Source: Thermoplasmatota archaeon
GTDB taxonomy: Archaea; Thermoplasmatota; Penumbrarchaeia; Penumbrarchaeales; Penumbrarchaeaceae
Reading direction: 5' to 3'
Assembly: GCA_965234725.1 (NCBI GenBank)
Contig: CBDDUX010000004.1
Span: forward strand, 1-64,000
Length of the DNA stretch: 64,000 nucleotides
Shown piece by piece: positions 8,973 to 46,427 of the stretch. Position 1 is the stretch's first letter, and each line of letters starts with the position of its first letter. Position numbers and translations under genes: made by a program. The notes below the pieces were generated by a model that saw nothing but the letters and a program-made list of their open reading frames with translations, searched no databases and was not told where the DNA came from.

Positions 8973-9426
8973 GTAAACTCCTCGATTTATCGACCCGTTG
9001 ATGGGGCCGGGATACTCCAGATATTTCGGATATATAATCGTTGTGATGATTTCAACAATTTGTACCGGATAAGAAAACATTTCATGTCAATTTGTAACAT
9101 GGATAGTATAAGACTTGCTCTCACTTTTACCCTTTAACACAAGAACTGGTCAATTCTTTGAAAAGTGCCAAATATGGATTTGACAAATGGTGTTTTTCCA
9201 TGGAATATCGAGTTATTTGTCCCAGTATTGGTCGATATAATGGCTCAAAATACTCCAGATCTCCTCCGAAATTTTGAAAGTCACATGGAATTTGAATCCA
9301 TTTGGAGGATATGGATGGTGGATGTCAATTTCATAATGATGGCAGAAAGGAAAAGGAATCCTCATCTATCGGGATTGCTGGATTTTGTACCAACTCTTGG
9401 AAGAACAGGGAATCCTGAAAACAATA

Positions 9427-9726
9427 TCACTCGGCAAGGGTGAAAAGCTGATCGTCCTCATCGACATCGAACAATCCCATCCGGGCCCCGGCATCCAACC
9501 AACCATGGGCATAGTTGACTGCACCATAAGCCAGGACATAGTTGCCGTCACCTGCAAATGCTTTTGCATCCATGAAGTATGACATGGCCATGGCCAGGAA
9601 GTCATCAGCAAGCTTTTTAAGATGGCTTCTCGGGGGTGGGGCTATCTTGACCTTCTCTATTGCCTTCTGGGTCGTGTTGATGTACTTCCTCATTCGTTCT
9701 TCTGTTATCACGGTGGTCTTATCCAT
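9427..9726 (-). CDS. DUF357 family protein
   Basis: MA.SY..DA..F...G....AYGAVNYAHGWLDAG.R.G is the archaeal DUF357 pattern. Confidence 0.85.
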   Translation of the reverse strand: MDKTTVITEERMRKYINTTQKAIEKVKIAPPPRSHLKKLADDFLAMAMSYFMDAKAFAGDGNYVLAYGAVNYAHGWLDAGARMGLFDVDEDDQLFTLAE

Positions 9727-9788
9727 GACCTTGCCCCATCTTTGAATCGTTGGGGTTGTACATAACCTTTGTTAAACAAATCTCAGCT

Positions 9789-11333: not shown

Positions 11334-11440
11334 TCTGTATTCCTCGAAGGTCCTTTGACGGGAAGGTAGATAAATGTTGCTTGGGGGGTGGAAGAATGTG
11401 CAACAACAAAGGGAAATAGTCGCCTATCCATCTCGCGTAT

Positions 11441-12085
11441 ATGGGAACCAATAGGATCCTGAATTCGAATGGAAAGATATATACCCTTGACAGAGAGGGT
11501 GGACAACCGGTCTACGGGGAAGAGATCATCGAAGTGAATGGAGAGAAGTATCGGGAATGGATCCCATGGAGGTCCAAGCTGGGTGCCCTATTAAAGAAAA
11601 GGGATTTTTCAATTCCGGATGTGGACGTTCTGTATCTGGGAGCAGCACAGGGGACAACAGTTTCCCATCTTTCCGATATTTTGGAAGAAGGGAGGATATT
11701 CGCTGTTGAATTCTCTCCAGTGGCATTTAGAAAACTGGTTCATCTCTCCCGCAGAAGGGACAATATCATTCCGATACTTGCGGATGCCTTCCATCCTGAA
11801 AGATACCGATCGATGGTACCAACCGTCGGCATGCTCTATCAGGACGTATCTCAGAAGGACCAGACGGGGATGTTCGTCATGAACGGGGGGATGTTCCTCG
11901 AAAAGAACGGTTTGGGACTCCTGATGTTAAAGGCAAGGTCAGTGGATGTGACGGCCAGACCGGAGGATGTTTATGGAAATTCCGCAAGGGAACTCCGGGA
12001 CAGTGGTTGTGATGTGATCTCTATTGAGGACCTCTCGCCTTTTCAAAAGGACCATGCGGCTATCGAGACCAGATTCAGGTCCTGA
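11441..12085 (+). CDS. flpA: Fibrillarin-like rRNA/tRNA 2'-O-methyltransferase
   Basis: Motifs VYGE, YREW.P.RSKL, VLYLGAA.GTTVSHLSD, AVEFS, YQDVSQ, KARSVDVT and LSPFQKDH. Confidence 0.95.
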   Translation: MGTNRILNSNGKIYTLDREGGQPVYGEEIIEVNGEKYREWIPWRSKLGALLKKRDFSIPDVDVLYLGAAQGTTVSHLSDILEEGRIFAVEFSPVAFRKLVHLSRRRDNIIPILADAFHPERYRSMVPTVGMLYQDVSQKDQTGMFVMNGGMFLEKNGLGLLMLKARSVDVTARPEDVYGNSARELRDSGCDVISIEDLSPFQKDHAAIETRFRS

Positions 12086-12096
12086 CGTTTCTTTCT

Positions 12097-12110
12097 AGAA
12101 AGTTTAAAAG
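12097..12110 (+). promoter_or_regulatory. BRE/TATA promoter of the DUF1015-serC operon (probably leaderless)
   Basis: AGAAAG-TTTAAAAG ends 23 nt upstream of ATG 12134, and no SD precedes that ATG. Confidence 0.55.
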
Positions 12111-12133
12111 GACCTTCTCACATACCGCCACCC

Positions 12134-13462
12134 ATGGTCACAGTCGTCCCTTTCAAAGCATATAGATACAATAAGGAAGCTATAACGGATCTCTCAAAGG
12201 TAGTGGCTCCTCCCTATGATGTTATCAAGGGGAAGAAACTGGACGCGGTCCAGGCACTTTCTCCATACAATATCTCATGGATCACCAAGAACAAACCCCG
12301 GGAAGGGGACACAACCGATGATAACCAGTATACAAGGGCTAGAGACCTTCTCAATGATTGGATATCAAAAGGGATCCTTGAACAGGATGGGGAGGATTCC
12401 TTCTATGTCTACTCACAGGATTTCGAGGTTATGGGAAGGACACTCACAAGGTTCGGTTTCATCGGCCTTCTTGAATTGGAAGAGTTCGCCAAGGAAGCTC
12501 CGAAGGAAGGTCCTTTTGCAGGAGTTCTCCAGCATGAGGAGACCCTTCCGAAGGATATCGAGGATAGACTGAACCTCTCCCGGAACACTATGGCTCAGTT
12601 CGGACAGATCTTCGTCATCTATCCCGACCAGGAAGGAAGTGTGGATTCAATACTTATCAAGAACATGGAAAAGGACCCATCGATGGATGTTGTGGATAAC
12701 GAAGGTATCCGACACAGATTGTGGAAAGTGGACTCCCCCGAGGATACGGGAGCGATCACCCAGCTGATGGGGAACAAGTTCGTGATAATCGCTGATGGCC
12801 ACCATAGGTACAAGACGGCCCTTGCTTTGAAAAAGGAGCAACCGGAATTGGAAAGTGCAAGGTTCAGGATGTTGACATTTGTGAATATGTCGAATCCGGG
12901 ACTTGTGATCCTTCCCACACACCGATTGGTTCAGAACCTGGAAGATTTCGATATACCTTCACTCATCCAGAAGATGGAGATGTATTTCACCATCAAGAAG
13001 CATGTTTCAAAGGATGAGATGTTCCTGGAGATGGATGGTTCTTTCCAGGAAGGAAAGCATTCATTCGGTGTATATCTCAACAACGGGGATTTCTATTCCA
13101 TGGAACTCAAGGATGTCTCGCCCATGACTGGACTCCGGAAGGATGCCTCACATGAGCTCAGGCAATTGGATGTTGCCATCCTTCACTCAATGATACTGGA
13201 TAATATCTTGGGCATAGACAAGGAGAAGCTTCTCCATGGAACCATGACCGGAGGCGGTTATGTTGTCTATATCAAGGGAATTGGCGATGCGGTGGATGAA
13301 TCCATTCAATCCGTCAATGATGGAGCCCAGTGTGTCTTCTTCATGAACCCCACAAGGATAGAAGAGGTCGAATCGGTCTCAAAGAACTTCGAATGCATGC
13401 CCCAGAAATCCACCTTCTTCCATCCGAAGGTCTGGACTGGATTCACGATCAATAAGCTTTAA
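12134..13462 (+). CDS. DUF1015 family protein (ParB/Srx-like fold)
   Basis: Motifs APPYDVI, HEETL, IADGHHRY, ILPTHR and MPQKSTFFHPK. Confidence 0.88.
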   Translation: MVTVVPFKAYRYNKEAITDLSKVVAPPYDVIKGKKLDAVQALSPYNISWITKNKPREGDTTDDNQYTRARDLLNDWISKGILEQDGEDSFYVYSQDFEVMGRTLTRFGFIGLLELEEFAKEAPKEGPFAGVLQHEETLPKDIEDRLNLSRNTMAQFGQIFVIYPDQEGSVDSILIKNMEKDPSMDVVDNEGIRHRLWKVDSPEDTGAITQLMGNKFVIIADGHHRYKTALALKKEQPELESARFRMLTFVNMSNPGLVILPTHRLVQNLEDFDIPSLIQKMEMYFTIKKHVSKDEMFLEMDGSFQEGKHSFGVYLNNGDFYSMELKDVSPMTGLRKDASHELRQLDVAILHSMILDNILGIDKEKLLHGTMTGGGYVVYIKGIGDAVDESIQSVNDGAQCVFFMNPTRIEEVESVSKNFECMPQKSTFFHPKVWTGFTINKL

Positions 13463-31931: not shown

Positions 31932-32771
31932 TCAGGTCCTTCGCCTTCTTGTAATATAAGTGATAAGAACAACTGCCATAAGTATGAAGATAGGCTCGGG
32001 ACCCGGGATCTTCTTTCCTGATGAGTCCTTCTGGAGTAGGTCATCATCCAAGGTACCATTCTCCCAGACACCGTCTTCCACAGATACTGATGTCATGGTG
32101 ATATCATCTACAGGATGGTCCTTCAGCAGCGGCCTTCTGTTTCCATAAGTGTCGCAGGCCGCGATCTCCTTCGCGATATCCAGTCCTTCGATCACCACTC
32201 CGAAGACAGCATATCCGTTCCCATCCCTTTCCCAGTCGTCCAGTCCATGCTGGGGTCCGTCGCATATATAGAACTGTGAGGAAGCCGAGTCCGGTTCCGT
32301 GGACCTTGCCATCCCTACCGCACCATCGATGTGTGAGGCATTCCTGCAGATCTCAAGCGGAATGGTGGTCCCGGACCCTCCCGAACCATCATCGTACAGG
32401 ATGTTGTTCTTGGTGTTCGGGTCACCCGTCTGAGCTACGAAATCATCAATGCACCTGTGGAACTTGATTCCATCATAGAATCCGGTTGAAGCAAGATCAA
32501 CGAAATTTTGGGTAGTGATCGGGGTCATATTATCGTAAAGCTCGAATTTGATCGTACCGTAACCAGCAACCTCGATCACTGCGATCCTGTTAGGTCTGCC
32601 GATGTCCTGAGGTTCTGTGTAGATGACCCCGTTATCATATAAGTCATCCATTTTCGAGTTTGTTCCCTTCTCATTCTCGACCGTATCAGCAACTGTGAGA
32701 TCAGGCAGAGCCAGCAATAGAAGTACCACGGAGATGGTCGCCAGGATAAGGGCGGGCTTTCCACAGACCAT
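31932..32771 (-). CDS. Secreted cyclophilin-type peptidyl-prolyl isomerase with C-terminal sorting-like signal
   Basis: Cyclophilin motifs P.T..NF..L..GFYDG..FHR.I..FVAQTGDP, GAVGMAR, SASSQFYI and YAVFG.V..G. N-terminal signal peptide; C-terminal IPGPE + TM + RRRR. Confidence 0.9.
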   Translation of the reverse strand: MVCGKPALILATISVVLLLLALPDLTVADTVENEKGTNSKMDDLYDNGVIYTEPQDIGRPNRIAVIEVAGYGTIKFELYDNMTPITTQNFVDLASTGFYDGIKFHRCIDDFVAQTGDPNTKNNILYDDGSGGSGTTIPLEICRNASHIDGAVGMARSTEPDSASSQFYICDGPQHGLDDWERDGNGYAVFGVVIEGLDIAKEIAACDTYGNRRPLLKDHPVDDITMTSVSVEDGVWENGTLDDDLLQKDSSGKKIPGPEPIFILMAVVLITYITRRRRT

Positions 32772-34158: not shown

Positions 34159-35109
34159 ATGTCTCCCTCTTCCGATGGGATGGTAATTCAGATGAGGTCC
34201 CTCACCAAATACTATGGTAAAGCCAGGGGGATAATCGAGGTGGACCTTTCCGTGAAGAAAGGAGAGGTATTTGGATTTCTGGGACCCAACGGTGCAGGGA
34301 AATCCACAACGATCAGGACCATTCTGGATTACATCAGACCAACCTCAGGATCTGCCATGGTCAACGGAATGGACCCTCAAATGGATGGGGCAAAGGTCCG
34401 CAGGTCTGTGGGATACCTACCTTCTGATTTCGGTACATATCACAACATGACAGCAAAGGATTATCTCAATACACTTCTCGAAATGATGGGCCACAAGGGA
34501 CCGAACAGGATCAAGGAGCTTGCTGGCAGGCTCCAACTGGACCTTAAAAGGAGGATCAAGGATTACTCCAGAGGCAACAGGCAGAAGGTCGGCCTTGTGT
34601 CGGCTTTCATGCATTCCCCGGATCTCATCATCCTGGATGAACCCTCATCCGGGCTTGACCCCCTGATGCAACAGGAGTTCTACAAGATCATACTGGAAGA
34701 GAAGGCAGCCGGGAGGACCGTGTTCCTTTCATCCCATATACTTGCCGAGGTAGAGGCCATCTGCGATAGAGTCGGTATTATCAAAGAAGGACGGTTGATA
34801 GTCGTTGAGGATATCAGAAAGTTCAAGGAGAAGACCGGAAAGATAATGCAGGTAAGGTTTTCCGGAGAGGTATCCCCCTCTGAATTCGCATCGATACATG
34901 GTGTCGCCCATGTGGAGGTCGTAAGCGGGAACAGGTTGAAGATTACTATAACCGGAAACGTGGACCCTGTTATCAAGGTGTTATCAAAACATACGGTCCT
35001 TGATCTTGATTACGAAGATATGTCCCTTGAGAGCCTATTCCTGAAATACTATGAGAAGGAAGGTGTTGTGGACCGCAGAGGAAAGACCATCAAGGGGGTG
35101 GAAGCATGA
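34159..35109 (+). CDS. ABC exporter ATP-binding protein (ABC-2/DrrA-like)
   Basis: Walker A GPNGAGKST, signature YSRGNRQK, Walker B IILDEP and SSH switch. Confidence 0.93.
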   Translation: MSPSSDGMVIQMRSLTKYYGKARGIIEVDLSVKKGEVFGFLGPNGAGKSTTIRTILDYIRPTSGSAMVNGMDPQMDGAKVRRSVGYLPSDFGTYHNMTAKDYLNTLLEMMGHKGPNRIKELAGRLQLDLKRRIKDYSRGNRQKVGLVSAFMHSPDLIILDEPSSGLDPLMQQEFYKIILEEKAAGRTVFLSSHILAEVEAICDRVGIIKEGRLIVVEDIRKFKEKTGKIMQVRFSGEVSPSEFASIHGVAHVEVVSGNRLKITITGNVDPVIKVLSKHTVLDLDYEDMSLESLFLKYYEKEGVVDRRGKTIKGVEA

Positions 35110-36380
35110 AACTGCCTCTGTTCAGAGCAGCTCTCTGGGATTCAAAGATATCTACTATCATCTACTGCGTGGTTCTGGTCCTTTATGGTTTGATGATAAT
35201 GTCTGCTTTCTCTTCTGTTGGAGATACCTTCAGCGATCCCTTCGCAGAGAATAACGGAGTGAAGATCACTGAAACAGGAGATAAGGTCGAAAAAGTGAGT
35301 GTCTACAATCTCACATGGGATACACAGGCTGCCGTTCTTTCGCATGTCGCGGTGGGTATGGATTCCGAATGGGCAATGAACAGCCAGGTCATCGATGTAT
35401 TGAACGGGACCATTCCAGAAGAGATATCGGACCTGGGATTGGACTGGTTCCAGATCCTTGAGATGTCCGATATGGTCCCTGGATTGAAGGAGAAGCTTTC
35501 GGACCAAGGTGGAATGGAACCCAAATCTCCATATCAGATAGATGAGAATGGGACCACACTCCTCTATTTGGGAGAGGGAACATATGTCAATTTCGTCAAC
35601 ACCTATGAAAATGATATGTTCATTGTCATCCTCATCCCGAATGACGGCAATATCAGCAATGCAACGATCAAAGGTCCTGCCATGCTAGGGAACCTGGATA
35701 CGATGAGTGATTTTGACAAATACCTGGAGGACAATCCCTTTGTCGAGGGTTTCTTGGGTGATGTTAGTGTTGATTTCTCAACAATAGAGGGTTATCTCGC
35801 TTTGGAATACTTCAGCCTCTGGCCTCTTCTATTCATTATATTCCTTGCCGTGAAAACATCCGGGGTCATTTCAAAGCATGTAGAGGACAGGTCCCTGGAC
35901 ATACTGCTAGCAACAGGGTATTCCAGGTTCCGTTTCATGAACGAGAAGGTTCTATTGCTCATTTTGAACTTTTTATTGATCATATTCTCTGCTTGGTTGG
36001 GGCTGGTGTTGGGCACCATAATGCTTGGTGAATCCATTCCATTTTCGGGTTTGACCTTCACCTTCATCGATTCCATACCAATGGCACTGGCATTTGTCGG
36101 TATCGCGATGCTCATATCGGTACTGGTGGATGAGGGTGGAAAATCCATAGGTATTGTGATGGGGGTCGTATTGGGAGAGTACATGCTAAATGTCGTTGCC
36201 AATCTTGCCAATTGGGGTGACAGCGTCAAATATCTGAGCCTCTTCACATACTGGAACAGCAACGATGCGATGCTTCATGGTGTGATACACCCCATCAACG
36301 TGATAGTCCCTCTGGCTGTCGCAGGGATAACGATATTCCTTTCCTACTACCTGTTCCAGAAGAAGGAAATTAGGGCCTGA
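35106..36380 (+). CDS. ABC-2 type exporter permease with large extracellular loop
   Basis: ATGA overlap with the ATPase. One TM, then a long soluble loop, then about 5 TM, with an EDRSLDILLATGYSR motif and C-terminal F.KKEI. Confidence 0.85.
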   Translation: MKLPLFRAALWDSKISTIIYCVVLVLYGLMIMSAFSSVGDTFSDPFAENNGVKITETGDKVEKVSVYNLTWDTQAAVLSHVAVGMDSEWAMNSQVIDVLNGTIPEEISDLGLDWFQILEMSDMVPGLKEKLSDQGGMEPKSPYQIDENGTTLLYLGEGTYVNFVNTYENDMFIVILIPNDGNISNATIKGPAMLGNLDTMSDFDKYLEDNPFVEGFLGDVSVDFSTIEGYLALEYFSLWPLLFIIFLAVKTSGVISKHVEDRSLDILLATGYSRFRFMNEKVLLLILNFLLIIFSAWLGLVLGTIMLGESIPFSGLTFTFIDSIPMALAFVGIAMLISVLVDEGGKSIGIVMGVVLGEYMLNVVANLANWGDSVKYLSLFTYWNSNDAMLHGVIHPINVIVPLAVAGITIFLSYYLFQKKEIRA

Positions 36381-36433
36381 AGGTCGACATGTAGAAGTTC
36401 CATTGAAATATCAACAAGCCATTATTGTATGAT

Positions 36434-36841
36434 ATGGAAGAGAAGCTTAAGGCGATTGGGAACAGACTTGATCTGACAGAAGTTGATGTCAGGTCCATTC
36501 GCAAGAGGAGGTTGAAGGACATAATGATCCTTGCGATTATCGGGACCCTCACATCATTCTTCTCGTTCATCGTCGGGTTCAGTATTGGGAATACAGAGAA
36601 ATATGGAATGGCCTACTATCCTTATGCAATAGTACCCCTGGCCACTATCAGGAATTACAGGGGAAGATGGGCCATAGTGGGGATCGGAGCCCTTCTGATG
36701 ATCATCTCTGGTATCTTCTTCTATCTTCAAGGGTTCGAGGCTGGCAAAATATTCTACTCCAATTCCATTCTTTACGGTGTCTATCAAAGGACAAAATCAA
36801 GGCCGCTTCTCGGTGAATTTGAAATATCATCCAATCGATAA
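36434..36841 (+). CDS. Small membrane protein, paralogue P1 (candidate precursor; YPYA and YGVY motifs)
   Basis: MEEKLKAIGNRLDLTEVDVRSIRKRR + TM + YYPYA + TM + SILYGVY. TTGAAATA lies about 23 nt upstream. Confidence 0.8.
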   Translation: MEEKLKAIGNRLDLTEVDVRSIRKRRLKDIMILAIIGTLTSFFSFIVGFSIGNTEKYGMAYYPYAIVPLATIRNYRGRWAIVGIGALLMIISGIFFYLQGFEAGKIFYSNSILYGVYQRTKSRPLLGEFEISSNR

Positions 36842-36847
36842 TAGATC

Positions 36848-37216
36848 ATGGCCAAGGACCTGGAAGAGCTTGGATCCAGATTGGATATCGATGATGAGGA
36901 CATGGAAAGGATAAGGAGAAAGAAAAGAAAGGAATTGATACTTGGTCCAGTGATAGGGATTTCCATCACAGTTTTATCAACCATGTTGGGTTATTTTATT
37001 GGAAAGAACGATCCGGTCTATGATAAGGTCCTGACCTACCCTTATGCTGGCCCCTTCATTTTTGCAATGACAGCAGGGGTGAGGAGGAAAAGATTCTGGA
37101 TCTCAGTTGCGATAATAACGTTAATTGCTTCAATTATTGGATTCATCATCGCACACGAGACCGCTCAACCTCATGAATACGGACTTGCCATCGAGTATGG
37201 TGTATACAACAAGTGA
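36848..37216 (+). CDS. Small membrane protein, paralogue P2
   Basis: MAKDLEELGSRLDIDDEDMERIRRKKRK + TM + TYPYA + TM + EYGLAIEYGVYNK*. Confidence 0.82.
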   Translation: MAKDLEELGSRLDIDDEDMERIRRKKRKELILGPVIGISITVLSTMLGYFIGKNDPVYDKVLTYPYAGPFIFAMTAGVRRKRFWISVAIITLIASIIGFIIAHETAQPHEYGLAIEYGVYNK

Positions 37217-37226
37217 GGGAGATCGA

Positions 37227-38513
37227 ATGAAACTCAATCTGGGATGCGGAAAGGTTTACAAACCCGGATACATCAATATCGATTCAGGCGACAGGTCCGT
37301 TGCCGATGAGTTCTGGAATATCATGGACCTCCCTCTAAAGGACGCTTCGGTGGACCTGGTCGAGGCAGACCAGGTGATCGAACATTTCGATTGGGTGAAC
37401 GTCAGGTATCTTCTTGCCGAATGCTGGCGTGTTTTGAAACCCAATGGAAGATTGATACTGGAGACACCGGACCTCCTGGGGACAATGAAGAAACTGAAAA
37501 GGACCCAGGGGGAAGAATTCCTCATAGGATCACAATGGCTTTTTGGAATTGGGACCAAGGGTCAAAGGCACGGGATGGTCTTCAAAGAAAAGGAACTCCA
37601 GGGAATGCTGATATCCTCCGGATTCGAGGATGTTGAGTTCTCTCCGCAGAGGACACATCTCTACGAACCTGGATTACATCTTGAATGTCATAAGGGAAAG
37701 GGCGAGGGGAGGAGAAAAGTAGAGACCCTGTTCCGCAAAAGGGTCAGAGCTGTATTCAAAGGGGATTCCTATCTCCTTATACCCATCGAGGACCACATGA
37801 ACGAACTCTTTTTCTCACTTACTGTGGACGGTGAACCAAGGGAACCGATCTTCACGGAGAACATTTTCAGAGCAGCCCTTGCCGACCCTGAGATACCCGG
37901 TCAGCTGATCCTTTCCATGAAAGCCTACAGGAAAGGTATGGAGATGGCCGACGAGCTCATGGAAGCAATGAGGTTCATCCATGATGAACAGATAAAAGGA
38001 AGGGCCTTTTCACTCTGGATGAAAAGGAAGAAAGGAGCTGATGTAAGGAAATCCTTCGAAGATTTCATCATTGATCTCTCCGATAAATTGAGAGATGCCA
38101 TTCTCCGATCCCAGGATCCTAAGAAGGAACTTGTCTATCTACTTTCATTGCAGCCGGAGGACATCAGATTATTGGATTTCAGGATGATCTCTGACAAAGC
38201 AAGGGAATGGTCCAATCAGGGAATTAAGGCCTTCAATAAAGGGGAGATGGATGAAGCAATGACCAATTTGGAGAGATCGATAAATGTGATACCCAACAAT
38301 CCGATAACCCATTGGAACATTGCCAGGCTCCTCTATCGTAAAGGATCGAGGTCCGAGGCACTAAAAAGATTTGACAAGATAAACAAACTATTGACCGACA
38401 AGGACCTCTTAAGGGAGACAAAGAAGGAACAGGATCTGATGAGGAAGGGGGCCATCGACCCGGAAACAATAGGTCCGAGATCCGAGGTCCATGTCGGAAA
38501 TATGTTCCAATAA
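37227..38513 (+). CDS. Class I SAM-dependent methyltransferase fused to helical/TPR domain
   Basis: KLNLGCG..GYINID, LP..DASVD.V...VIEH and ECWRVLKPNGRLILETPD. C-terminal TPR (G..AF..G.MDEA...LE.SI...PNN...HWNIA). GAGGGAG precedes ATG 37227. Confidence 0.85.
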   Translation: MKLNLGCGKVYKPGYINIDSGDRSVADEFWNIMDLPLKDASVDLVEADQVIEHFDWVNVRYLLAECWRVLKPNGRLILETPDLLGTMKKLKRTQGEEFLIGSQWLFGIGTKGQRHGMVFKEKELQGMLISSGFEDVEFSPQRTHLYEPGLHLECHKGKGEGRRKVETLFRKRVRAVFKGDSYLLIPIEDHMNELFFSLTVDGEPREPIFTENIFRAALADPEIPGQLILSMKAYRKGMEMADELMEAMRFIHDEQIKGRAFSLWMKRKKGADVRKSFEDFIIDLSDKLRDAILRSQDPKKELVYLLSLQPEDIRLLDFRMISDKAREWSNQGIKAFNKGEMDEAMTNLERSINVIPNNPITHWNIARLLYRKGSRSEALKRFDKINKLLTDKDLLRETKKEQDLMRKGAIDPETIGPRSEVHVGNMFQ

Positions 38514-38544
38514 ATTATTTAAAGGGTTCAACCAATTGAATCTT

Positions 38545-38916
38545 ATGAAGGAGAGGCTCGAAGAAATCGGGAAGAGACTTGGCCTTTCGAAGAATGATAT
38601 CAAGGAGGTCAGGAGGGAGGGTAGGAAATACAGGACCTTATTTTTCTTAGGAGGAGCGATCCTTGCATTGATCGCCTTCATCCTTGGTCTTCTTTTCGGA
38701 TGGTTCACCAAGAAGGAGACGGGCGGAAACGGATCAGGGAATCCTGATCCGGGTGGTGGATATCCCTACGCGGGGGTTGCCGTGGTGGTTGGAGGGTTGA
38801 AGTATTCAAGACCATCAAGAATGGCATTGATCCTTGCTACAGCCGTTGCTTTCCTTGCAGGCTTATCCGCTCCTGTGTTTGGACAGAGCATAGATTACGG
38901 TGTTTATTGTAAGTGA
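38545..38916 (+). CDS. Small membrane protein, paralogue P3
   Basis: MKERLEEIGKRLGLSKNDIKEVRREGRK + TM + GGYPYA + TM + PVFGQSIDYGVYCK*. TTATTTAAAG lies about 21 nt upstream. Confidence 0.82.
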   Translation: MKERLEEIGKRLGLSKNDIKEVRREGRKYRTLFFLGGAILALIAFILGLLFGWFTKKETGGNGSGNPDPGGGYPYAGVAVVVGGLKYSRPSRMALILATAVAFLAGLSAPVFGQSIDYGVYCK

Positions 38917-38928
38917 GGAGCTGATTTC

Positions 38929-39309
38929 CTGGATCGACTGAAGGAGATCGCCGATAGATTAGGCCTATCAGAGGATGATGTAAGCGAGATAAGAAAGGAA
39001 AGGAGGAAATTGAGGTGGATGATCGCCATTGGAGGTCTTATTGCGGCATTACTGATGTTCCTGATGGGTTTCTTAATTGGGTTCTTCATATCCAATGGTG
39101 ATCCCAGTGGTGACCCTTTTAGTGAACCCTCCGGTGATGGATATCCTTTTGCCACCTCTGCTTTTGGCATTGCGAGCACTCAAGGAAGAAAATGGAAAAG
39201 AATTCTGATGCCAGCCCTTTTCATTCTTGGGTTTCTGACCGGATTGTCCAGGCCTGTATTTGGGAACAGCGTCCGATATGGTGTATTCAGGAGAGGCGAG
39301 GTCAGATGA
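38929..39309 (+). CDS. Small membrane protein, paralogue P4 (probable CTG start)
   Basis: In-frame extension of ORF 39010..39309 gives LDRLKEIADRLGLSEDDVSEIRKERRK + TM + DGYPFA + TM + PVFGNSVRYGVF. GAGGAG ends 8 nt before CTG 38929. Confidence 0.75.
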   Translation: MDRLKEIADRLGLSEDDVSEIRKERRKLRWMIAIGGLIAALLMFLMGFLIGFFISNGDPSGDPFSEPSGDGYPFATSAFGIASTQGRKWKRILMPALFILGFLTGLSRPVFGNSVRYGVFRRGEVR

Positions 39310-40319
39310 AATTAAAACCGGAAGTAGCTGTGTGGGAGACCACGCTCAGATGTAATCTCAGATGTTCTCATTGCGGATCCGTCGCCGGGGATGCAAGAAC
39401 AGATGAACTTTCAACTCAGGAATGCTTCTCACTTATCGAACAGTTGGCAGATCTGGGTTGCAAGGATGTGTCCTTGATGGGCGGGGAGTTCCTTATCCGG
39501 GATGACTGGCATGCTCTTGGTGGATGTGTGAAGGATCTGGGAATGGACCTCTGCATGGTCTCGAACGGTATTATGGTCCCGAAGTTCATCAATGAAATAT
39601 CGAGACTGCAACCAAAGGTAGTGGGTATATCCGTTGACGGATTGAAGGAAGCTCACGAGAAGATCAGGGGGAAGGGGACCTTCGATCCGACAATGAAAGC
39701 CGTTGACATGCTGCTTGATAGAGATATTCAGACGACCCTGATAACCACTATCAGCAAGATCAATTTCAAGGACCTTCCAAAGATGGCGGAGATGATAAAG
39801 GGAAGGGGATGCAATTGGCAGATCCAGACAGCGATGCCCTTCGGAAATTTCAGCAGGGATCTGCTAATCTCCGAAGAGGACTACTACGCCTCGGCCATGT
39901 TCATTGCGAAACAGAGGATAAACAACAAGTTCGAGGACCTTCCTCTAATTGGAGCCCACTGTTATGGATACCATTCAAAGGTCCTTCCCGGGTGCAAATG
40001 GGGCGGGTGTACGGCTGGTTTAAGATCGATCGGAATAACATCGAACGGTGGAATAGTCGGGTGCCTTTCAATGGGAAATGAGAGGTTCATCGAGGGGAAT
40101 ATCAGGGAGAGGACCTTGAGAGAGATCTGGGAGGATCCCAGAGCTTTTACCTACAACCGGAAATTCAGTAAAGAGGAACTTGGACCGAATTGCAAAGGTT
40201 GTAGATATGGGAAGAAGTGCAAGGGTGGCTGCAATTCAGTGTCCATTTCTTTGACAAATCGTTTTCATAATGATCCCTACTGCTTCCGCAGGATTGAAAG
40301 GGATGTAATTGGAATTTGA
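39306..40319 (+). CDS. Radical SAM/SPASM peptide/protein maturase, splicease (PlpX)-like
   Basis: AVWETTLRCNLRCSHCGS (CxxxCxxC), ELST.E, GGE, ISVDG and WQIQ..MP.GN. SPASM domain W.GCTAG..IGI...G...GCLS, GNIRE, CKGC.....CKGGC and DPYC. ATGA overlap with P4. Confidence 0.88.
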   Translation: MKLKPEVAVWETTLRCNLRCSHCGSVAGDARTDELSTQECFSLIEQLADLGCKDVSLMGGEFLIRDDWHALGGCVKDLGMDLCMVSNGIMVPKFINEISRLQPKVVGISVDGLKEAHEKIRGKGTFDPTMKAVDMLLDRDIQTTLITTISKINFKDLPKMAEMIKGRGCNWQIQTAMPFGNFSRDLLISEEDYYASAMFIAKQRINNKFEDLPLIGAHCYGYHSKVLPGCKWGGCTAGLRSIGITSNGGIVGCLSMGNERFIEGNIRERTLREIWEDPRAFTYNRKFSKEELGPNCKGCRYGKKCKGGCNSVSISLTNRFHNDPYCFRRIERDVIGI

Positions 40320-40346
40320 GGGAGGATCTTAAATAAATTCATTCGC

Positions 40347-40934: not shown

Positions 40935-42830
40935 TCAATCGAGTATCTCTTGTATGGATCTGTAAGTGCTTTCACTGATACGACCATCGAATTTACTGTC
41001 CTCAAGAAGGACCCGGATACTGTCCGAATCAACTTCGATCTCTCCTTTGTCCCCGGACCGGGTAATATCTCTGATATATTCCCTAATCCTTTCCTCCTCC
41101 TTTGTCAGATCACCGGATCTCTTACCAATTGACCTAATGACTATGAAGGTGGCAAGGAAAAAAAGTATTGCGCATATAAATATGATTACCGGTACGAGGA
41201 TGTATCCATCAATCCGGTATCTATCGGGGTCCTTATCCCTTTGATCTCTGGGATCGTTCAGATATCTATCAATTTCCAGTCCGGTGGTCGAGTCGTTCTG
41301 GTCCATCCCAGGATTCCATTCATCTGGATATCCATCCATGTCTTCATCTACCGATGCGGCGGGATCATAGGGAAATTTATCCTTGTCATCTGTTATATTA
41401 TCCCCATCCGTGTCCTTTGTTTCATTGGTTTGATTATTATCCGGATCACTGCCCTCTTCCTCCTTCCATCTTGAAGGGTCCAGGGGGTAGAAATCAGAAT
41501 TGTCTCCAACCTTGTCACCGTCTGAATCCATCCATTCCGATGGATCCTCAGGGAATGCATCTGTATTGTTTCCTACTCCATCACCATCTGTGTCGATCCA
41601 TTCATTGGGATCATTTGGAAATGCATCGGAGTTGTCGCCGAAGGTATCGTTATCGGAATCCTTCCATTCATTCGGATCGTTGGGAAAGACATCCGAATTA
41701 TCCCCCACCGTATCATTATCGGTGTCATTCCATTCGTTGGGATCTTCAGGGAACCTGTCGATTGGATCCGTGTATCCATCACCATCGCTGTCTTTTTTAG
41801 TGGGTGTATAATGGATATTTAGTATACCAACCTCTACCCTGGAGCCACTGCAGGTCGAGATGAACTCGTTGTTTGAAGAGATCTCGATATCCTTGATCCA
41901 AGGGAATTTATTCACCACATCCAGGTCGATCCTATCATCGATATGCATAATGCAGAGTTGGGAAACGTTCGAATAGAAGAAGAATTTGCCTTCCTTGTCC
42001 AAAGCTCCTGTTGAAATTGCAGGAAGGTTCTCGATAAGGGCCTCGAATTCTTTAGTATTGGCATCTGCCAGATACATCGTCTCATTTCCAAACACCATGT
42101 TGGAACTGTGGGGTCTCCATTCCAGATACGTTGCGATCACCGGAAAGGGACCGATGGTGCTATACAGTTCGATATCATCGTTAGAGGAGAGATATACTAT
42201 CTCGACAATTCCCCTGAAGGGTCTCCCATCCATCCCAATGAATTGATAACTTGATACAGCAAGATGTCCAATATCCGAATAGTCGATGGCAACAACAGAA
42301 CCATAAGGATTGTAATTATCTATCACGGTCCAATCAGTCGTATTGAGTATGTCCACATTACCGTAATGAGGTCCGCTCACTGCCAATCTTGTATGTGAAG
42401 TATCAGATGAAAGACATGAGATCCATTCATTGAAATAGGTATCTTCCAACAAATTCATATCCGGGACAGTATAGATCCTCAGTCCTCCTTGGTATGTATT
42501 GTGCTGTGATCCCATTCCCACTGCAAGAACAAGATCTCCGTCACTATAGGTCCACTCAAGATCCCTGATGGTATGGTTTTCCTTGATGGTCCAATCGATA
42601 CCATGTGTTGTATGATTGAACCCAATAACGGTCCCGTTCTGGTAACCGATAGCTACGGTGTTTCCATCTGGTGAGAATTTGATAACGTTCGGACTCCCCT
42701 CAACGATGGTGGCCCAGGAGTCCGGGAATATATCTTCCTCTGCTCCTGCTACCATGAAAGTAGAAGTGAACAGGGTTAGAAGAATTATCGAAATTCCTGG
42801 GGTAAGGAGGTTTCTGACGAATGAACTCAC
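40935..42830 (-). CDS. Surface protein: WD40-like propeller + thrombospondin type 3-like Ca-binding repeats + TM
   Basis: Signal peptide from GTG 42830 (TATATATA about 21 nt upstream); WD40-like FSPDG..VAIG; 22-aa repeats; TM ILVPVIIFICAILFFLATFIVI. Confidence 0.8.
   Translation of the reverse strand: MSSFVRNLLTPGISIILLTLFTSTFMVAGAEEDIFPDSWATIVEGSPNVIKFSPDGNTVAIGYQNGTVIGFNHTTHGIDWTIKENHTIRDLEWTYSDGDLVLAVGMGSQHNTYQGGLRIYTVPDMNLLEDTYFNEWISCLSSDTSHTRLAVSGPHYGNVDILNTTDWTVIDNYNPYGSVVAIDYSDIGHLAVSSYQFIGMDGRPFRGIVEIVYLSSNDDIELYSTIGPFPVIATYLEWRPHSSNMVFGNETMYLADANTKEFEALIENLPAISTGALDKEGKFFFYSNVSQLCIMHIDDRIDLDVVNKFPWIKDIEISSNNEFISTCSGSRVEVGILNIHYTPTKKDSDGDGYTDPIDRFPEDPNEWNDTDNDTVGDNSDVFPNDPNEWKDSDNDTFGDNSDAFPNDPNEWIDTDGDGVGNNTDAFPEDPSEWMDSDGDKVGDNSDFYPLDPSRWKEEEGSDPDNNQTNETKDTDGDNITDDKDKFPYDPAASVDEDMDGYPDEWNPGMDQNDSTTGLEIDRYLNDPRDQRDKDPDRYRIDGYILVPVIIFICAILFFLATFIVIRSIGKRSGDLTKEEERIREYIRDITRSGDKGEIEVDSDSIRVLLEDSKFDGRISESTYRSIQEILD
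41463..41792 (-). repeat. Five 66-bp (22-aa) tandem TSP3-like repeats
   Basis: DSDGDGYTDPIDRFPEDPNEWN / DTDNDTVGDNSDVFPNDPNEWK / DSDNDTFGDNSDAFPNDPNEWI / DTDGDGVGNNTDAFPEDPSEWM / DSDGDKVGDNSDFYPLDPSRWK. Confidence 0.9.
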
Positions 42831-43067
42831 ATTAGCGTTATGAGATCCCGTATATATATCAAGTTCAACGATAATTTGAAACATATCTGGCCCTTTGATC
42901 CTATATAATTTTTGTGACAATCTTATCCAACATATCAGGAGAATATTTGAAGAATACATGAAATGTTGACGGATAATGCCGTAATATTTTAATAGGTAGG
43001 TTTGAGCCAGATATGTGAGAACAATATTGTGATATCCTCCTTATAATCCCAAAAGAATATCTTATCC

Positions 43068-46000
43068 ATGGGAAGGGAAGAGTTCTCTCTTAAGATCCCA
43101 CAAGGGAATAGGTCTAGACCATCCGTATTACCATTTGCATTGATGTTCATTTTCATTGTAATGATAATTATCGGGTCCTATCAGGGATCATTCTCTGGTT
43201 TAAAGGAAGATGAGGGTCCATTGATATTCAATAATGTGACCAATATGGATTTCAGTAATGATACTTTATTCCTTGCTTCTCCAGATAATGATCTGAAGGT
43301 TTGTGTATGGACAACTGAATTGGGTGATGAGAAGGGGTGTCCGGTATACAGTATTCTATACAATGGGGATCCTGTTGTTCAAAGGTCCAGATTGGGGTTG
43401 AATATTGAAGGAATGGAGGAGAAATTATCTTCTGGTCTGATGTTAGATGGAAATGAAAGAAGTTCGGTGAACAGTTCGATCGAACTAGTTGCCTCCGATG
43501 TTGATGTTATTCCGGAGAGATACAACCAGATGATCGTTTCTTACAGTAGTACGGAAGAAGAGGAAATCGGGATGGATATCATTTTCAGAGCATACGATGA
43601 AGGCATATCTTTCTCATATTATGTGGATAAGCTTGATGGAAAGAAGACCTGTAGGATAAAAGATGAAATTACCAGTTTCAATGTAACAGAGGATTCTATT
43701 TGTTTTGCTGAATATGGTGTAGAGGCGGCATACAATAAAGTAAAGGTCTCGGAGATCAAGAAGGACTGTGAACTGCCTCTGCTAATAGAAGATGCGGATT
43801 CGGAGTGTTGGATGACCATTTCGGAAGCAGGTCTTCAAGATTACTCAAGGGCATTCCTTGGTCCCGGTAGCAAGATGAATGGGACCATAGACACATCCAT
43901 TTATTCCAGTGTTGGAAAGAATGTTCCATTTACCACTCCATGGAGGATGGTCCTGATCGGAGATCATCCTTTCGAGATGATCGAAAAGGGCCGGATATGT
44001 TATTCAATGTGCTCTGACAATGTTATAGGTGATACGAGCTGGATAATGCCAGGTAAGGCATTCAGGGATTGTTCTTTGACCACCAAAGGGTCGAAAGGCA
44101 TCATCGACTACTGTTCATATCATGGAATGGAATATGTTCATCTGGACGCAGGCTGGTATGGAAAGGAAAGTGAATCAAGTTCGGATGCATCTACCGTTTC
44201 AGCGAAGAACCTGAACCTTACAGAGGTAATCTCCTATGCAAAGAGCAAGGATATCGGTGTGATCCTATACGTTAACAACAAGGCTCTTACCAGACAGTAC
44301 AAGGATATCTTCCCTCTTTACAAGAAGTGGGGTATCGCTGGAGTGAAGTTCGGTTTCGTCGACGGAAGGTCCCAGGCTGGAATAAACTTCGTTCATAAAG
44401 CGGTTCAGGAAGCGGCAAAGAACGAATTGATCGTTGATGTTCACGATTATTACAGACCTACAGGGATGAGCAGGACATATCCCAATTTGCTGACACAGGA
44501 GGGAGTCAGGGGAAACGAGCAATTCCCCTCTGCTCGGGATAACACGATACTCCCATTCACACGGTGTGTTGCCGGTCCGACCGATTATACGCCGATATTT
44601 GCAACGAAGGGGACGACCACGACAATGGCCCATCAACTTGCCCTTCCTATCGTAATATTCAGCCCTCTTCAATACATTTACTGGTATGGCACGCCGGAAA
44701 AGGCCGGGAATTCTTCCATCAATACACTGTGGGATAATATTCCCACCGTGTGGAATGAATCGATATTCATAGAAGGAAATCCCGGGAGCCATGCGGTTTA
44801 CGCCAGGAGATCGGACAAAGACTGGTATCTTGGTGCGATCAACGGTCCGAAAGATAGGACCTTAAAGATCAGATTGGATTTCCTTGATCAGGGCGATCAA
44901 TATTCTGCTCGTTTGTACACTGACCCGGGCAATGGTTCGGTGGAGATCAGGGACTTCACTGTCAACTCTGAAACAGAGATCATTGAAAATGTCCCTCAAA
45001 GAAGTGGATTATCCATGAAGATAAAGGAGGTCCAGGAAGATCCTCCCCCGGATGACGACAAGTATCCACCCCGACTTGTTGATATCGGAAAATGGGAGAT
45101 CTTCGAGGATACGGTTCAGAAGGTGACTCTGCTTTCCCCCAATGGCTGGGATGGGCTTACCATCAAACATGATCCGCTTCCAGGATTCCTTCATCTTCTG
45201 GAGGGGGATAAGGCACTATTGGCTGAACCAGGAAATGATGATGTCGGAGATCATTCCGTTGTGTTCGAACTGTTTTCGGGAGAAGAACTCCTAGACAGCA
45301 TTGAAATGGTAATTGAGGTCCAAAATGTCAATGACCCTCCGGAGATGACCATTCCCGAATATGTAATGATGGATACGGGAACCCGTTATGTCATACCTTT
45401 GAAAGCAACCGATATCGATCCAACAGAGGATGATCTGATATGGGAGATAAATACCAATGCTGATTTCTTCGATCTGGATGAAGAAAATGATACTTTGAAT
45501 GCATATCCTACACTCCTTGACGGAGGGATGCATACAATATATCTCAATGTAAGTGACGGTAATGGGGGTTCTGTTGAAGGAAAGATGTATGCCCTCGTCA
45601 CCCAACCGAACGGTTCCGTTTTCCTTCTGCCATCCAACGGGTCCCTTGAACTCCGGGAAGGACAATACTTCACATATAGGTTCCAGGCGATCTCAGAGGG
45701 AAAGAATGTTGAGAATTTGATATGGAAGCTGAAGAACGCTCCCTCCTTCCTTTCGATAGATGAAGACTCTGGGATCCTATCGGGGAGATCCGGGAATAAG
45801 GATGCTGGTGTTTACATGTTCGATGTCACCTTGGAGGAAGGAGGCGTTGAAACGGCAAGTGCAACCTTTACGGTTTTTGTGCATAGGGTAAATGATCCCC
45901 CCATGATCACAACATCCCCCACGCTTATTGAAGTTGATGCTGGGAGTACTCTTCAAGTGGAGCTTGATGCCATAGATGAGGATCTCATCTCAGGATCCTT

Positions 46001-46427
46001 GAAATGGAGCATGGTAGAATCCCCCGATTTTGCGATCGTTGAGACCGAAACGGGAAAGCTCCTGATATCTCCTGGTGAAGATGAAAGGGGATTCCATGAG
46101 GTCCTGGTCCGGGTGGAAGATCCTGAGGGAGCATTTGACGATCTGGTGCTAGCGGTCCTCGTAAATGGAGATGAATCGGGCAAGGATATCGAGGAATGGG
46201 AATACAATGGAAGTAAGGTTCGGGTCATCCCCGTTGAAATAACTTCCGATGTTTGGAATGAGTACCCCTATTATGTGGTGGATGGATCATCCATCATCAT
46301 CTATTATCCTTTCATGGAAGAAAGTATCGAGGATCCGGGAGATGGTTCGGATATTGGTTATATTGCATTATTTGTGATCCTGGTCTCTGTTATCACAATA
46401 TTCATCCATATGTTCATCAAGAGATAG
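43068..46427 (+). CDS. Glycoside hydrolase family 97 with cadherin-like/Ig repeats and C-terminal TM
   Basis: GH97 motifs LASPD.DL.V, FRAYDEG, TPWR, DTSWI.PGK, DAGWY, RPTG.SRTYPN..T.EGVRGNE, LPFTR..AGP.DYTP, T.AHQLA and PTVW. VNDPP linkers mark cadherin-like modules. Confidence 0.88.
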   Translation: MGREEFSLKIPQGNRSRPSVLPFALMFIFIVMIIIGSYQGSFSGLKEDEGPLIFNNVTNMDFSNDTLFLASPDNDLKVCVWTTELGDEKGCPVYSILYNGDPVVQRSRLGLNIEGMEEKLSSGLMLDGNERSSVNSSIELVASDVDVIPERYNQMIVSYSSTEEEEIGMDIIFRAYDEGISFSYYVDKLDGKKTCRIKDEITSFNVTEDSICFAEYGVEAAYNKVKVSEIKKDCELPLLIEDADSECWMTISEAGLQDYSRAFLGPGSKMNGTIDTSIYSSVGKNVPFTTPWRMVLIGDHPFEMIEKGRICYSMCSDNVIGDTSWIMPGKAFRDCSLTTKGSKGIIDYCSYHGMEYVHLDAGWYGKESESSSDASTVSAKNLNLTEVISYAKSKDIGVILYVNNKALTRQYKDIFPLYKKWGIAGVKFGFVDGRSQAGINFVHKAVQEAAKNELIVDVHDYYRPTGMSRTYPNLLTQEGVRGNEQFPSARDNTILPFTRCVAGPTDYTPIFATKGTTTTMAHQLALPIVIFSPLQYIYWYGTPEKAGNSSINTLWDNIPTVWNESIFIEGNPGSHAVYARRSDKDWYLGAINGPKDRTLKIRLDFLDQGDQYSARLYTDPGNGSVEIRDFTVNSETEIIENVPQRSGLSMKIKEVQEDPPPDDDKYPPRLVDIGKWEIFEDTVQKVTLLSPNGWDGLTIKHDPLPGFLHLLEGDKALLAEPGNDDVGDHSVVFELFSGEELLDSIEMVIEVQNVNDPPEMTIPEYVMMDTGTRYVIPLKATDIDPTEDDLIWEINTNADFFDLDEENDTLNAYPTLLDGGMHTIYLNVSDGNGGSVEGKMYALVTQPNGSVFLLPSNGSLELREGQYFTYRFQAISEGKNVENLIWKLKNAPSFLSIDEDSGILSGRSGNKDAGVYMFDVTLEEGGVETASATFTVFVHRVNDPPMITTSPTLIEVDAGSTLQVELDAIDEDLISGSLKWSMVESPDFAIVETETGKLLISPGEDERGFHEVLVRVEDPEGAFDDLVLAVLVNGDESGKDIEEWEYNGSKVRVIPVEITSDVWNEYPYYVVDGSSIIIYYPFMEESIEDPGDGSDIGYIALFVILVSVITIFIHMFIKR

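Follow-up and report, generated by a model that had tools for sequence, protein, structure and literature searches.

This report concerns an eight-gene cassette (positions 34159-40319) in a 64,000-nucleotide stretch of Thermoplasmatota DNA, positions 1 to 64,000 of contig CBDDUX010000004.1 (assembly GCA_965234725.1), the whole of which is here called the window. The genes are all encoded on the + strand, their order being ABC (ATP-binding cassette) ATPase, permease, P1, P2, a methyltransferase fused to tetratricopeptide repeats (methyltransferase-TPR), P3, P4 and a radical S-adenosylmethionine (rSAM) enzyme with a SPASM domain; P1 to P4 are small membrane proteins. An earlier reading of the bare DNA letters, hereafter the sequence-only reading, had given this order and orientation, and both are confirmed by the open reading frames (ORFs) of the window and by Pfam and NCBIfam searches. 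We find that the cassette belongs to a real, conserved archaeal system in which the P family, for which neither Pfam nor NCBIfam has a model, and its partner enzymes are currently unannotated. The system is found in sediment archaea, Asgard lineages among them, and the evidence is indicative of a protein modification which has yet to be reported for the archaea. The tails of the P proteins are very probably the substrates of the rSAM enzyme, and the reaction may be the excision of tyramine, an assignment which we make tentatively and at somewhat less than an even chance.

Distribution and conserved core of the cassette

A pattern scan of one genome per species, covering 185,579 species, yielded 80 loci. 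Those numbered L022-L072 are orthologues of the window's rSAM gene at 50-92% identity, except for L068 at 43%, and their hosts are Thermoplasmatota, many Asgard lineages, metagenome-assembled genomes (MAGs) labelled Nanohalarchaeota and a few MAGs with bacterial labels. Among the carriers is a cultured Asgard archaeon, Promethearchaeum syntrophicum MK-D1, whose locus, with three P proteins, is at about 1.570-1.589 Mb of NZ_CP042905.2; two partial loci from Aenigmatarchaeota (L076 and L097) stand further down the scan list. Database searches returned more than 650 homologues of the enzyme, the best 120 of which are 57-90% identical and, where named, archaeal (Thermoplasmatota, Asgard).

Neighbouring genes were counted at 50 loci, being the window and L022-L072 without the divergent L067 and L068. 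With a hidden Markov model (HMM) made from P1-P4 and iterated over all ORFs of the scan loci, P genes were found at 46 of the 50, in one to seven copies each; three of the remaining loci are cut by contig ends (L064, L069 and L071) and the fourth (L041) has soluble precursors instead. A methyltransferase-TPR homologue is present at 44 loci, all six gaps being at contig edges. Blind clustering of the neighbouring ORFs gave only three recurrent families, present in 50, 45 and 44 loci; the clusters ranked next were antisense shadows of the rSAM gene, and no other real family occurred in more than eight loci. The same clustering revealed no recurrent peptidase, transporter, dehydrogenase or RiPP recognition element (RRE; RiPP, a peptide made by the ribosome and modified post-translationally) across the 50 loci. 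The conserved unit has three parts, namely the P proteins, the methyltransferase-TPR protein and the rSAM/SPASM enzyme, and in this core the methyltransferase-TPR protein is obligatory. Only at four of the 50 loci (the window, L022, L023 and L031), all of the window's genus, does the cassette have the ABC pair beside it; the two ABC genes are lineage-specific neighbours outside the conserved core. The sequence-only reading had made export part of the system, a claim which these counts do not support. It had also remarked that neither an RRE nor a peptidase gene is visible, and indeed there is none in the window cassette and none conserved across the loci. The neighbourhood of the P homologues, which it had proposed to analyse, bears out a link of P, methyltransferase and rSAM genes and leaves the ABC pair outside.

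Among 37 genomes of the class, P, methyltransferase-TPR and rSAM orthologue co-occur in an identical set of eight (G000, G001, G003, G004, G022, G030, G034 and G036), and two more genomes hold rSAM fragments only. No P homologue without the rSAM was encountered in the 37 genomes, an arrangement that the sequence-only reading had named as one that would speak against its proposal. The rSAM orthologue is split in two frames in G004 (G004:C11:121870-122878) and broken by TAG and TGA in G030 (G030:C92:19854-20848), while G007 retains just a C-terminal remnant (G007:C101:14353-14670). Because of the patchy distribution and the split and stop-interrupted enzymes of G004 and G030 the cassette is to be regarded as accessory, and it seems to be decaying in some lineages.

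Two arrangements deviate from the usual one. Contig 76 of G036 has a second methyltransferase-TPR gene and four P genes with no adjoining rSAM gene (L103 5750-8931), another array of three P genes is found at a contig end (L102 7262-8731), and the sole rSAM orthologue of that genome is located on a different short contig; several arrays may share a single rSAM, unless these are points at which the assembly is broken. In one genus a GTPase of 466-472 aa resembling EF-Tu/aEF1-alpha, with all three EF-Tu domains (E 2e-45), sits between P genes inside the cassette (L016 5139-6539 in G034; L019 6572-7990 in G030), and is either a housekeeping factor or a dedicated paralogue.

The P-family proteins

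The mutual identity of P1-P4 is only 28%, and what is common to all four is YP.A in mid-protein and YGV in the tail. Across 104 non-redundant P proteins from the loci the central YP is kept without exception (104/104), and the residue which follows it is Y or F in 97. The columns of the tail hold Tyr in 102, Gly in 76, Val in 92 and Y, F or W in 94 of these proteins, the fourth position being Y in 61 and F in 31. Where Gly is replaced, the residue after the Tyr is N (13), S (6) or D (5), or else A, E or a gap; many different residues precede the Tyr, among them D, R, L, K, M and E. The tail consensus is x-Y-[G/N/S/D]-V-[Y/F]-x-[R/K]. The sequence-only reading had taken YG as the site, which is correct for the four proteins of the window, all with xYG, and too strict for the family. 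A profile search of 1.84 billion representatives gave 422 P clusters at 50% identity (296 at E<=1e-10), all with lengths of 104-190 aa. In the best 150 of the 422 representatives the central Y and P are kept in 150 and 149, and the tail Y, G, V and Y/F in 147, 103, 132 and 136, respectively. Judged by these counts, the tail motif is not a product of chance.

Between 2 and 59 residues lie beyond the tail motif, which is never found at the exact C-terminus. It was stated previously that the P proteins end in xYGV(Y/F); the motif is there in all four, and since 18, 2, 2 and 6 residues follow it in P1-P4 it is near the C-terminus and not at it. At the N-terminus is a conserved helix-turn-helix-like segment, L-x-E-I-G-x-K-L-G-V-S-x-x-D-I, and then a basic stretch. 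Two strong hydrophobic segments are present in 88 of the 104 proteins. The segment from YP to the second transmembrane segment (TM2) is positively charged (K+R 4.0 vs D+E 0.55), and hydrophobicity and charge taken together fit two topologies, one with two segments and the C-terminus inside, the other with three segments and the C-terminus outside. P1-P4 gave no meaningful match in Pfam or NCBIfam, and an ESM Atlas search with P2 gave no match of at least 0.9, the best being 0.83. By the divergent bacterial-labelled homologues L068 and L073-L075, nothing convincing was found in the way of small ORFs with a Y-x-V-[YF] tail.

The rSAM enzyme and its relatives

The 337-residue enzyme has the radical SAM motif CNLRCSHC at residues 16-23, WQIQ at 171-174 and the SPASM motif CxxCx5Cx3C at 296-309. 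Eleven cysteines (16, 20, 23, 219, 235, 253, 296, 299, 305, 309 and 326) are invariant in 20 orthologues, and no N-terminal RRE domain is present in the protein. All the motifs that the sequence-only reading had quoted for the enzyme were found in it.

The best NCBIfam model is TIGR04103, at 203.6 bits (204.7 when the genome was searched), its cut-off being 725. We take this model to be the same as IPR026482, which is consistent with its name; the splicease PlpX is assigned to IPR026482 in the available text of PMC11002830. TIGR03913, the GDL motif peptide-associated maturase, comes second at 186.8 bits, far under its cut-off of 591.75, and is the best model for the homologues of MK-D1 and L067 (207 and 234 bits). 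There is no GDL in P1-P4, and we know of no characterised reaction for the TIGR03913 family. Lower scores were obtained with TIGR04133 (135 bits), MftC (TIGR03962, 110.2 bits against a cut-off of 265), WgkB (108), PqqE (81) and DynA (73). The rSAM enzymes of heme cofactor synthesis, NirJ, AhbC and AhbD (127.5, 118.9 and 115.2 bits, with cut-offs of 500-650), were considered as candidates and rejected.

These scores and the shape of the tail bear on the idea that the GVY-like tail is converted to a small Tyr-derived redox cofactor of the mycofactocin or pyrroloquinoline quinone kind, and then methylated. The C-terminal motif of MftA is GVY, and the P tails likewise offer G-V-Y in a Tyr-containing C-terminal region, next to an rSAM/SPASM enzyme and with a methyltransferase at hand. 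MftC is described as acting on Val-Tyr in the part of PMC10114670 that is accessible. Against this stand the low MftC and PqqE scores, a motif which is not terminal and of which the first Tyr and not the last is invariant, and the lack, across the loci, of recurrent MftB-, MftD-, MftE- or MftF-like genes and of a recurrent peptidase, dehydrogenase or RRE; moreover, one to seven divergent paralogues per genome are unlike cofactor precursors. We regard a cofactor as quite improbable.

In the scan, the tier below the archaeal orthologues (33-39% identity) includes many cyanobacteria as well as Rheinheimera pleomorphica and R. aquimaris. In the two Rheinheimera species the rSAM genes lie directly downstream of short precursors, with DYG and MYG sites in the one instance and LYG in the other. 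RcsA and RasA precursors with such sites have been published, and their partners RcsX and RasX are reported in the available text to excise tyramine (PMC11626197); because the adjoining precursors carry DYG/MYG and LYG, the Rheinheimera genes are identified as RcsX/RasX. When RcsX was compared with the window's genome, the present rSAM was matched with 213 bits (35% identity) and the paralogue ranked after it with 71 bits; the window enzyme is the reciprocal best match of this proven splicease.

A quick IQ-TREE phylogeny was computed from 80 rows, comprising 45 archaeal, 5 intermediate and 23 splicease-tier sequences with 7 archaeal SPASM paralogues as outgroup; the duplicates L013-L021 and the partial or split L031, L064, L070, L071, L072, L076, L091 and L097 were omitted. 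The archaeal clade, including L067, L068 and L073, has a support of 98 in the approximate likelihood ratio test (SH-aLRT) and the splicease clade one of 100. The two are united with L074 and L075 against the outgroup with a support of 94, and the branch between them is long. The AhbD-like paralogues of the window's and related genomes fall in the outgroup, and with NirJ, Ahb, MftC and PqqE at 81-127 bits the enzyme does not group with the cofactor enzymes, as the sequence-only reading had anticipated. Thirteen positions have the same residue in at least 90% of both clades and in at most one of the seven outgroup members, among them G24, A27, G28, R31, Q172 and Q174. Because these positions are common to both clades and rare in the outgroup, the likeness to spliceases in HCGS.AG..R and WQIQ, which the sequence-only reading had put forward, survives the test. 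On this phylogeny the rSAM clade appears to be sister to the tyramine spliceases, and by its score the enzyme lies outside the TIGR04103/PlpX family. The earlier placement of the enzyme in the PlpX splicease family is therefore upheld as to kinship (top model, reciprocal best match, sister clade) and not as to membership, for which the score is too low, the C-terminal extension is missing and the predicted pocket differs at most positions.

Model of the proposed enzyme-substrate complex

The rSAM (alignment of 20) and P2 (alignment of 85) were folded together with S-adenosylmethionine and three 4Fe-4S clusters. The model has a median ipSAE (an interface score) of 0.71, the best of three controls having 0.00. 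This mark is attained by 58 of 80 solved complexes and by 2 of 110 mismatched pairs, a calibration which is only rough for the present case because of its own alignments and the co-folded ligands. The runs share at least 94% of their contacts, and the predicted local distance difference test (pLDDT) value of the partner is at least 58.

P2 residues 3-29, which form the conserved helix, are placed by the model on rSAM residues 157-158, 191-206 and 213-229. This docking region holds residues that are invariant across the orthologues (E191, F199, I200, R204, G216 and H218). Tail residues 114-115 and 118-122 of P2 are positioned among barrel residues 7, 9, 54, 56, 83, 85, 104-107, 142-146 and 170-172. 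Both modelled contact surfaces are conserved, and the YP motif is outside the modelled interface. No splicease structure was found by a sequence search of the PDB, where the nearest entries are SkfB, PqqE, anSME and CteB; it is thus unlikely that the model reproduces a complex already solved for this family. The binary spliceases do without a Y protein, and their leader alpha-helix has been modelled, in the portion of PMC11414181 available, as binding the enzyme at the site which the Y protein occupies in type I systems. The predicted docking of the P helix parallels that of the modelled binary splicease leader.

The methyltransferase-TPR protein and variant loci

The methyltransferase domain occupies approximately residues 1-160; the C-terminal domain to which it is fused is all-helical and contains TPR repeats. 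The AlphaFold2 model (pLDDT 93.4) has a class I Rossmann fold followed by the helical TPR domain, and motif I (LNLGCG) and the subsequent methyltransferase motifs are conserved. Foldseek matched generic class I methyltransferases only, with no hint of the substrate, and a sequence search of the PDB matched the TPR repeats only. The obligatory character of this partner, together with the invariant YP[YF] and the leader-like N-terminal helix, was overlooked in the sequence-only reading.

Two variant loci bear on which features travel together. At L067 (Thermoplasmatales MAG, 8525-12689) the rSAM is 50% identical to that of the window and is accompanied by a clostripain-family (Peptidase_C11) protein, a second rSAM/SPASM enzyme and a soluble precursor of 85 aa that has three YKAGTxYGT[VI]S repeats and, at its N-terminus, a similar helix; both the methyltransferase-TPR and the YP motif are missing. 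This cluster resembles a classical RiPP form of the system. L041 (Helarchaeota, 8533-8988) has two soluble precursors of about 54 and 65 aa between the methyltransferase-TPR and rSAM genes, which have neither hydrophobic segments nor a leader helix and have kept GYP[FY] and a C-terminal YGVY. These two loci, the one without both features and the other with both, suggest that the methyltransferase is tied to YP[YF].

L067, with its peptidase and its soluble multi-core precursor, lends some colour to a classical exported RiPP, in which the modified C-terminal peptides of P would be cleaved off and exported as bioactive ketoamide peptides by the adjoining ABC transporter, whose two genes immediately precede the P genes, on the same strand and with short gaps. 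Spliceotides inhibit proteases, according to the available text of PMC11626197. The restriction of the ABC pair to the window's genus, the absence of any recurrent peptidase or transporter, the hydrophobic segments of most precursors and the short stretch left after the motif (2 to about 20 residues) all speak against cleavage and export, which we consider unlikely.

The soluble precursors also bear on whether the P proteins are substrates at all. As membrane partners or regulators they would leave the rSAM and methyltransferase to act on a lipid or small molecule, a role with which their helix-turn-helix-like N-terminus and ambiguous tail topology could be reconciled. The soluble variants, however, retain just the two short motifs, copy number varies from one to seven with a diversified residue before the Tyr, the model puts the tail in the barrel while the controls score nothing, and the nearest characterised relatives modify peptides. 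A role other than substrate is very unlikely.

Proposed function

We propose a three-component archaeal protein-modification system of rSAM enzyme, P proteins and methyltransferase-TPR. The rSAM would recognise P by the N-terminal helix-turn-helix-like segment, which would act as a leader, and the C-terminal tail would enter the barrel, where its invariant Tyr would undergo radical chemistry. A splicease-type excision of a tyramine equivalent would be the likeliest reaction. The methyltransferase-TPR would be a second enzyme, probably linked to YP[YF]; the products would remain modified small membrane proteins, as distinct from cleaved and exported peptides, and the ABC transporter would be an add-on in the window's genus. 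Of these elements, the genes present, their co-occurrence, the family relationships and the conserved motifs are observed, the docking is modelled, and the chemistry and the part played by the methyltransferase are inferred. Taken as a whole, and with tyramine excision included, this explanation is the best we have and falls a little short of an even chance.

The system was compared with the tyramine spliceases PlpX and PcpX (type I, with a Y protein) and RhaX/RasX and RcsX (binary). Like these, the window enzyme has the radical SAM CxxxCxxC and a full SPASM domain, with the extended CSHCGSxAGxxR and WQxQ, and the locus has multiple adjoining precursor genes with a Tyr-Gly site and a variable preceding residue. 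As with the binary spliceases, there is no Y protein or RRE gene in the cassette, and an N-terminal helix docks on the enzyme in the model. Several features set the system apart from the spliceases. The archaeal rSAM has approximately 34-35% identity to them and its C-terminal part is some 90-130 residues shorter. The site, Y-[G/N/S/D]-V-[Y/F], lies close to the C-terminus and is not a strict XYG. Most of the putative substrates are membrane proteins of two segments in which YP[YF] is a second invariant motif, the methyltransferase-TPR is an obligatory partner, and the hosts are archaeal.

A number of points weigh against splicing. The enzyme fails membership of TIGR04103, with which RcsX and RasX score 631 and 627 bits and cyanobacterial members 789-816. 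It is 337 aa long, the spliceases being 421-470 aa, and lacks about profile positions 346-412 in the C-terminal part. The tree has few outgroups and no member of TIGR03913, and its rows were picked for their likeness to the query. What the complex score expresses is the confidence of the model, which is not a measurement. Within that model, 12 of the 14 tail-contact positions differ between the archaeal and splicease clades and are conserved within each, only V9 and Q172 agreeing; the differences include C/Y at 7, V/T at 85, V/T at 105, G/S at 107, T/G at 144, I/N at 146 and N/A at 170 (archaeal/splicease). As modelled, such a pocket is consistent with another reaction or another substrate context. 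The charge distribution of P suggests that the tail could lie outside the membrane, which would put it beyond the reach of a cytoplasmic enzyme unless it were modified before insertion. To our knowledge, spliceotide clusters are not known to require a methyltransferase. Lastly, 28 of the 104 P proteins have no Gly following the Tyr, and the Val at +2 is better kept (92/104); in known splice sites the +2 position varies, with any of C, G, S, V, L, M, I, P and A seen there.

The loss of Gly does not exclude splicing. As set out in the available text of PMC9811515, the new C-C bond of the splicing reaction links C1 of the residue ahead of the Tyr to the C1 that had belonged to the Tyr; the residue after the Tyr is therefore outside the bond rearrangement.

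The same enzyme and substrate could be engaged in another radical chemistry on the tail, and this is a serious though less than even possibility. A C-C or C-O crosslink might be formed, for example a three-residue Tyr-x-Val cyclophane or a link between the tail Tyr and YP[YF], or the Tyr might be modified and then methylated. Cyclophane formation follows an aromatic-x-x motif, and an invariant Tyr with a small or polar residue at +1 and Val at +2 fits this at least as well as it fits XYG. The divergent pocket, the long branch between the clades, the obligatory methyltransferase and the persistence of two invariant Tyr motifs in the soluble L041 precursors would also be accommodated. The cassette resembles the systems of crosslinking maturases (cyclophane enzymes, WgkB, DynA, PqqE) in combining a SPASM maturase with a short aromatic motif in a ribosomal precursor. 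It differs in that these maturases, compared by HMM only, score below the splicease model (WgkB 108, DynA 73, MftC 110 and PqqE 81 vs 204 bits). This reading is further opposed by the position of YP[YF] away from the modelled interface and by the YG repeats of L067, which occur without YP. Tyramine excision, taken by itself as the reaction, we hold as a tentative assignment, rather less probable than not. A wider statement, that Asgard archaea, Thermoplasmatota and some DPANN excise tyramine from the tails of small membrane proteins to leave electrophilic backbone ketoamides (beta-amino acids) with paralogue-specific side chains, with processing by the methyltransferase-TPR, is more doubtful.

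Relation to published work

No published description of an archaeal rSAM-P-methyltransferase system was found in our literature searches, which did not cover Scott et al. 2022 and its supplements, so that a prior mention is possible. That paper (Chem 8:2659) is reportedly a survey of splicease types. Figures of 189 bacterial genera, 27 confirmed and 939 predicted systems are given for the splicease survey in the accessible portions of PMC10849128 and PMC10533398. One sentence in the available text of PMC11626197 mentions loosely 'bacterial and archaeal genomes' for spliceases, and the part of the archaeal RiPP survey PMC12144867 that could be consulted does not mention spliceotides. Splicease chemistry has so far been bacterial and confined to soluble peptide precursors, its native products being elusive, as far as the available text of PMC9811515 goes.

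What is described here is a sister enzyme family locked to a defined substrate family and an obligatory methyltransferase in about 50 species-level archaeal genomes. As one carrier is a cultured Asgard archaeon, the effect of the enzyme on a native protein is directly testable. Should the reaction be splicing, it would extend the installation of backbone beta-amino acids to archaeal membrane proteins, where it would be the first case of backbone splicing known from archaea and also from native membrane proteins, and would provide a compact splicease, free of a Y protein and with a defined leader helix, for engineering. Should it not be splicing, the clade would be a natural experiment in the divergence of spliceases to new chemistry.

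Gene map of the window cassette

All coordinates in this section refer to the + strand unless otherwise indicated. The cassette opens with the ABC transporter ATPase (316 aa, 34159..35109; Pfam ABC_tran, E 2.4e-24) and the ABC-2 family permease (424 aa, 35106..36380; ABC2_membrane_2, E 9.1e-9). P1 (135 aa, 36434..36841; P-family HMM, E 2.1e-32) has YPY at nt 36617-36625 and the tail LYGVY, with YGVY at nt 36773-36784. P2 (122 aa, 36848..37216; E 3.5e-36) has YPY at nt 37037-37045 and ends in EYGVY-NK, with YGVY at nt 37196-37207. The class I methyltransferase-TPR (428 aa, 37227..38513) matches Pfam Methyltransf_11 and TPR. P3 (123 aa, 38545..38916; E 1.8e-31) has YPY at nt 38761-38769 and the tail DYGVY-CK, with YGVY at nt 38896-38907, and P4 (38929..39309; E 9.2e-30) has YPF at nt 39142-39150 and the tail RYGVF, with YGVF at nt 39277-39288. 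The rSAM/SPASM gene (337 aa, 39306..40319; Pfam Radical_SAM and SPASM) starts at an ATG overlapping the stop of P4 (ATGA). The starts of P1 (ATG 36434), the methyltransferase (37227), P3 (38545) and the rSAM (ATG 39306) were re-assigned from the DNA.

The start of P4 is peculiar. Its conserved N-terminal helix is encoded in frame straight after the TGA of P3 (38914-38916), and no ATG, GTG or TTG is found in the DNA ahead of that helix. A candidate start is the CTG at 38929, 8 nt downstream of GAGGAG. The first start listed for P4, TTG 39010, would if used delete the leader helix. At the equivalent junction of the congeneric relative G001 there is a TGATG with a normal ATG. A CTG start, readthrough of the stop codon giving a P3-P4 fusion, and a decaying copy are possible readings.

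Neighbouring features and related sequences

Directly downstream of the cassette are genes for two very large predicted surface proteins, at 40935-42959 (- strand) and 43068-46427 (+ strand), both with a C-terminal membrane anchor; the former has Asp-rich repeats of the calcium-binding type (DxDxDGxxD...). A comparable giant repeat protein follows the second cassette of G036 (L103 231-5726). Two short contigs of a single metatranscriptome run, approximately 97% alike, cover 37460-38081 within the methyltransferase gene only, which does not in itself show transcription. Contigs from public marine-sediment runs contain relatives which are 95-99% alike to 36400-40320. Upstream, the ORF at 31932-32771 (- strand) has, by inspection of its translation, the look of a cyclophilin-type peptidyl-prolyl isomerase with hydrophobic segments at both ends.

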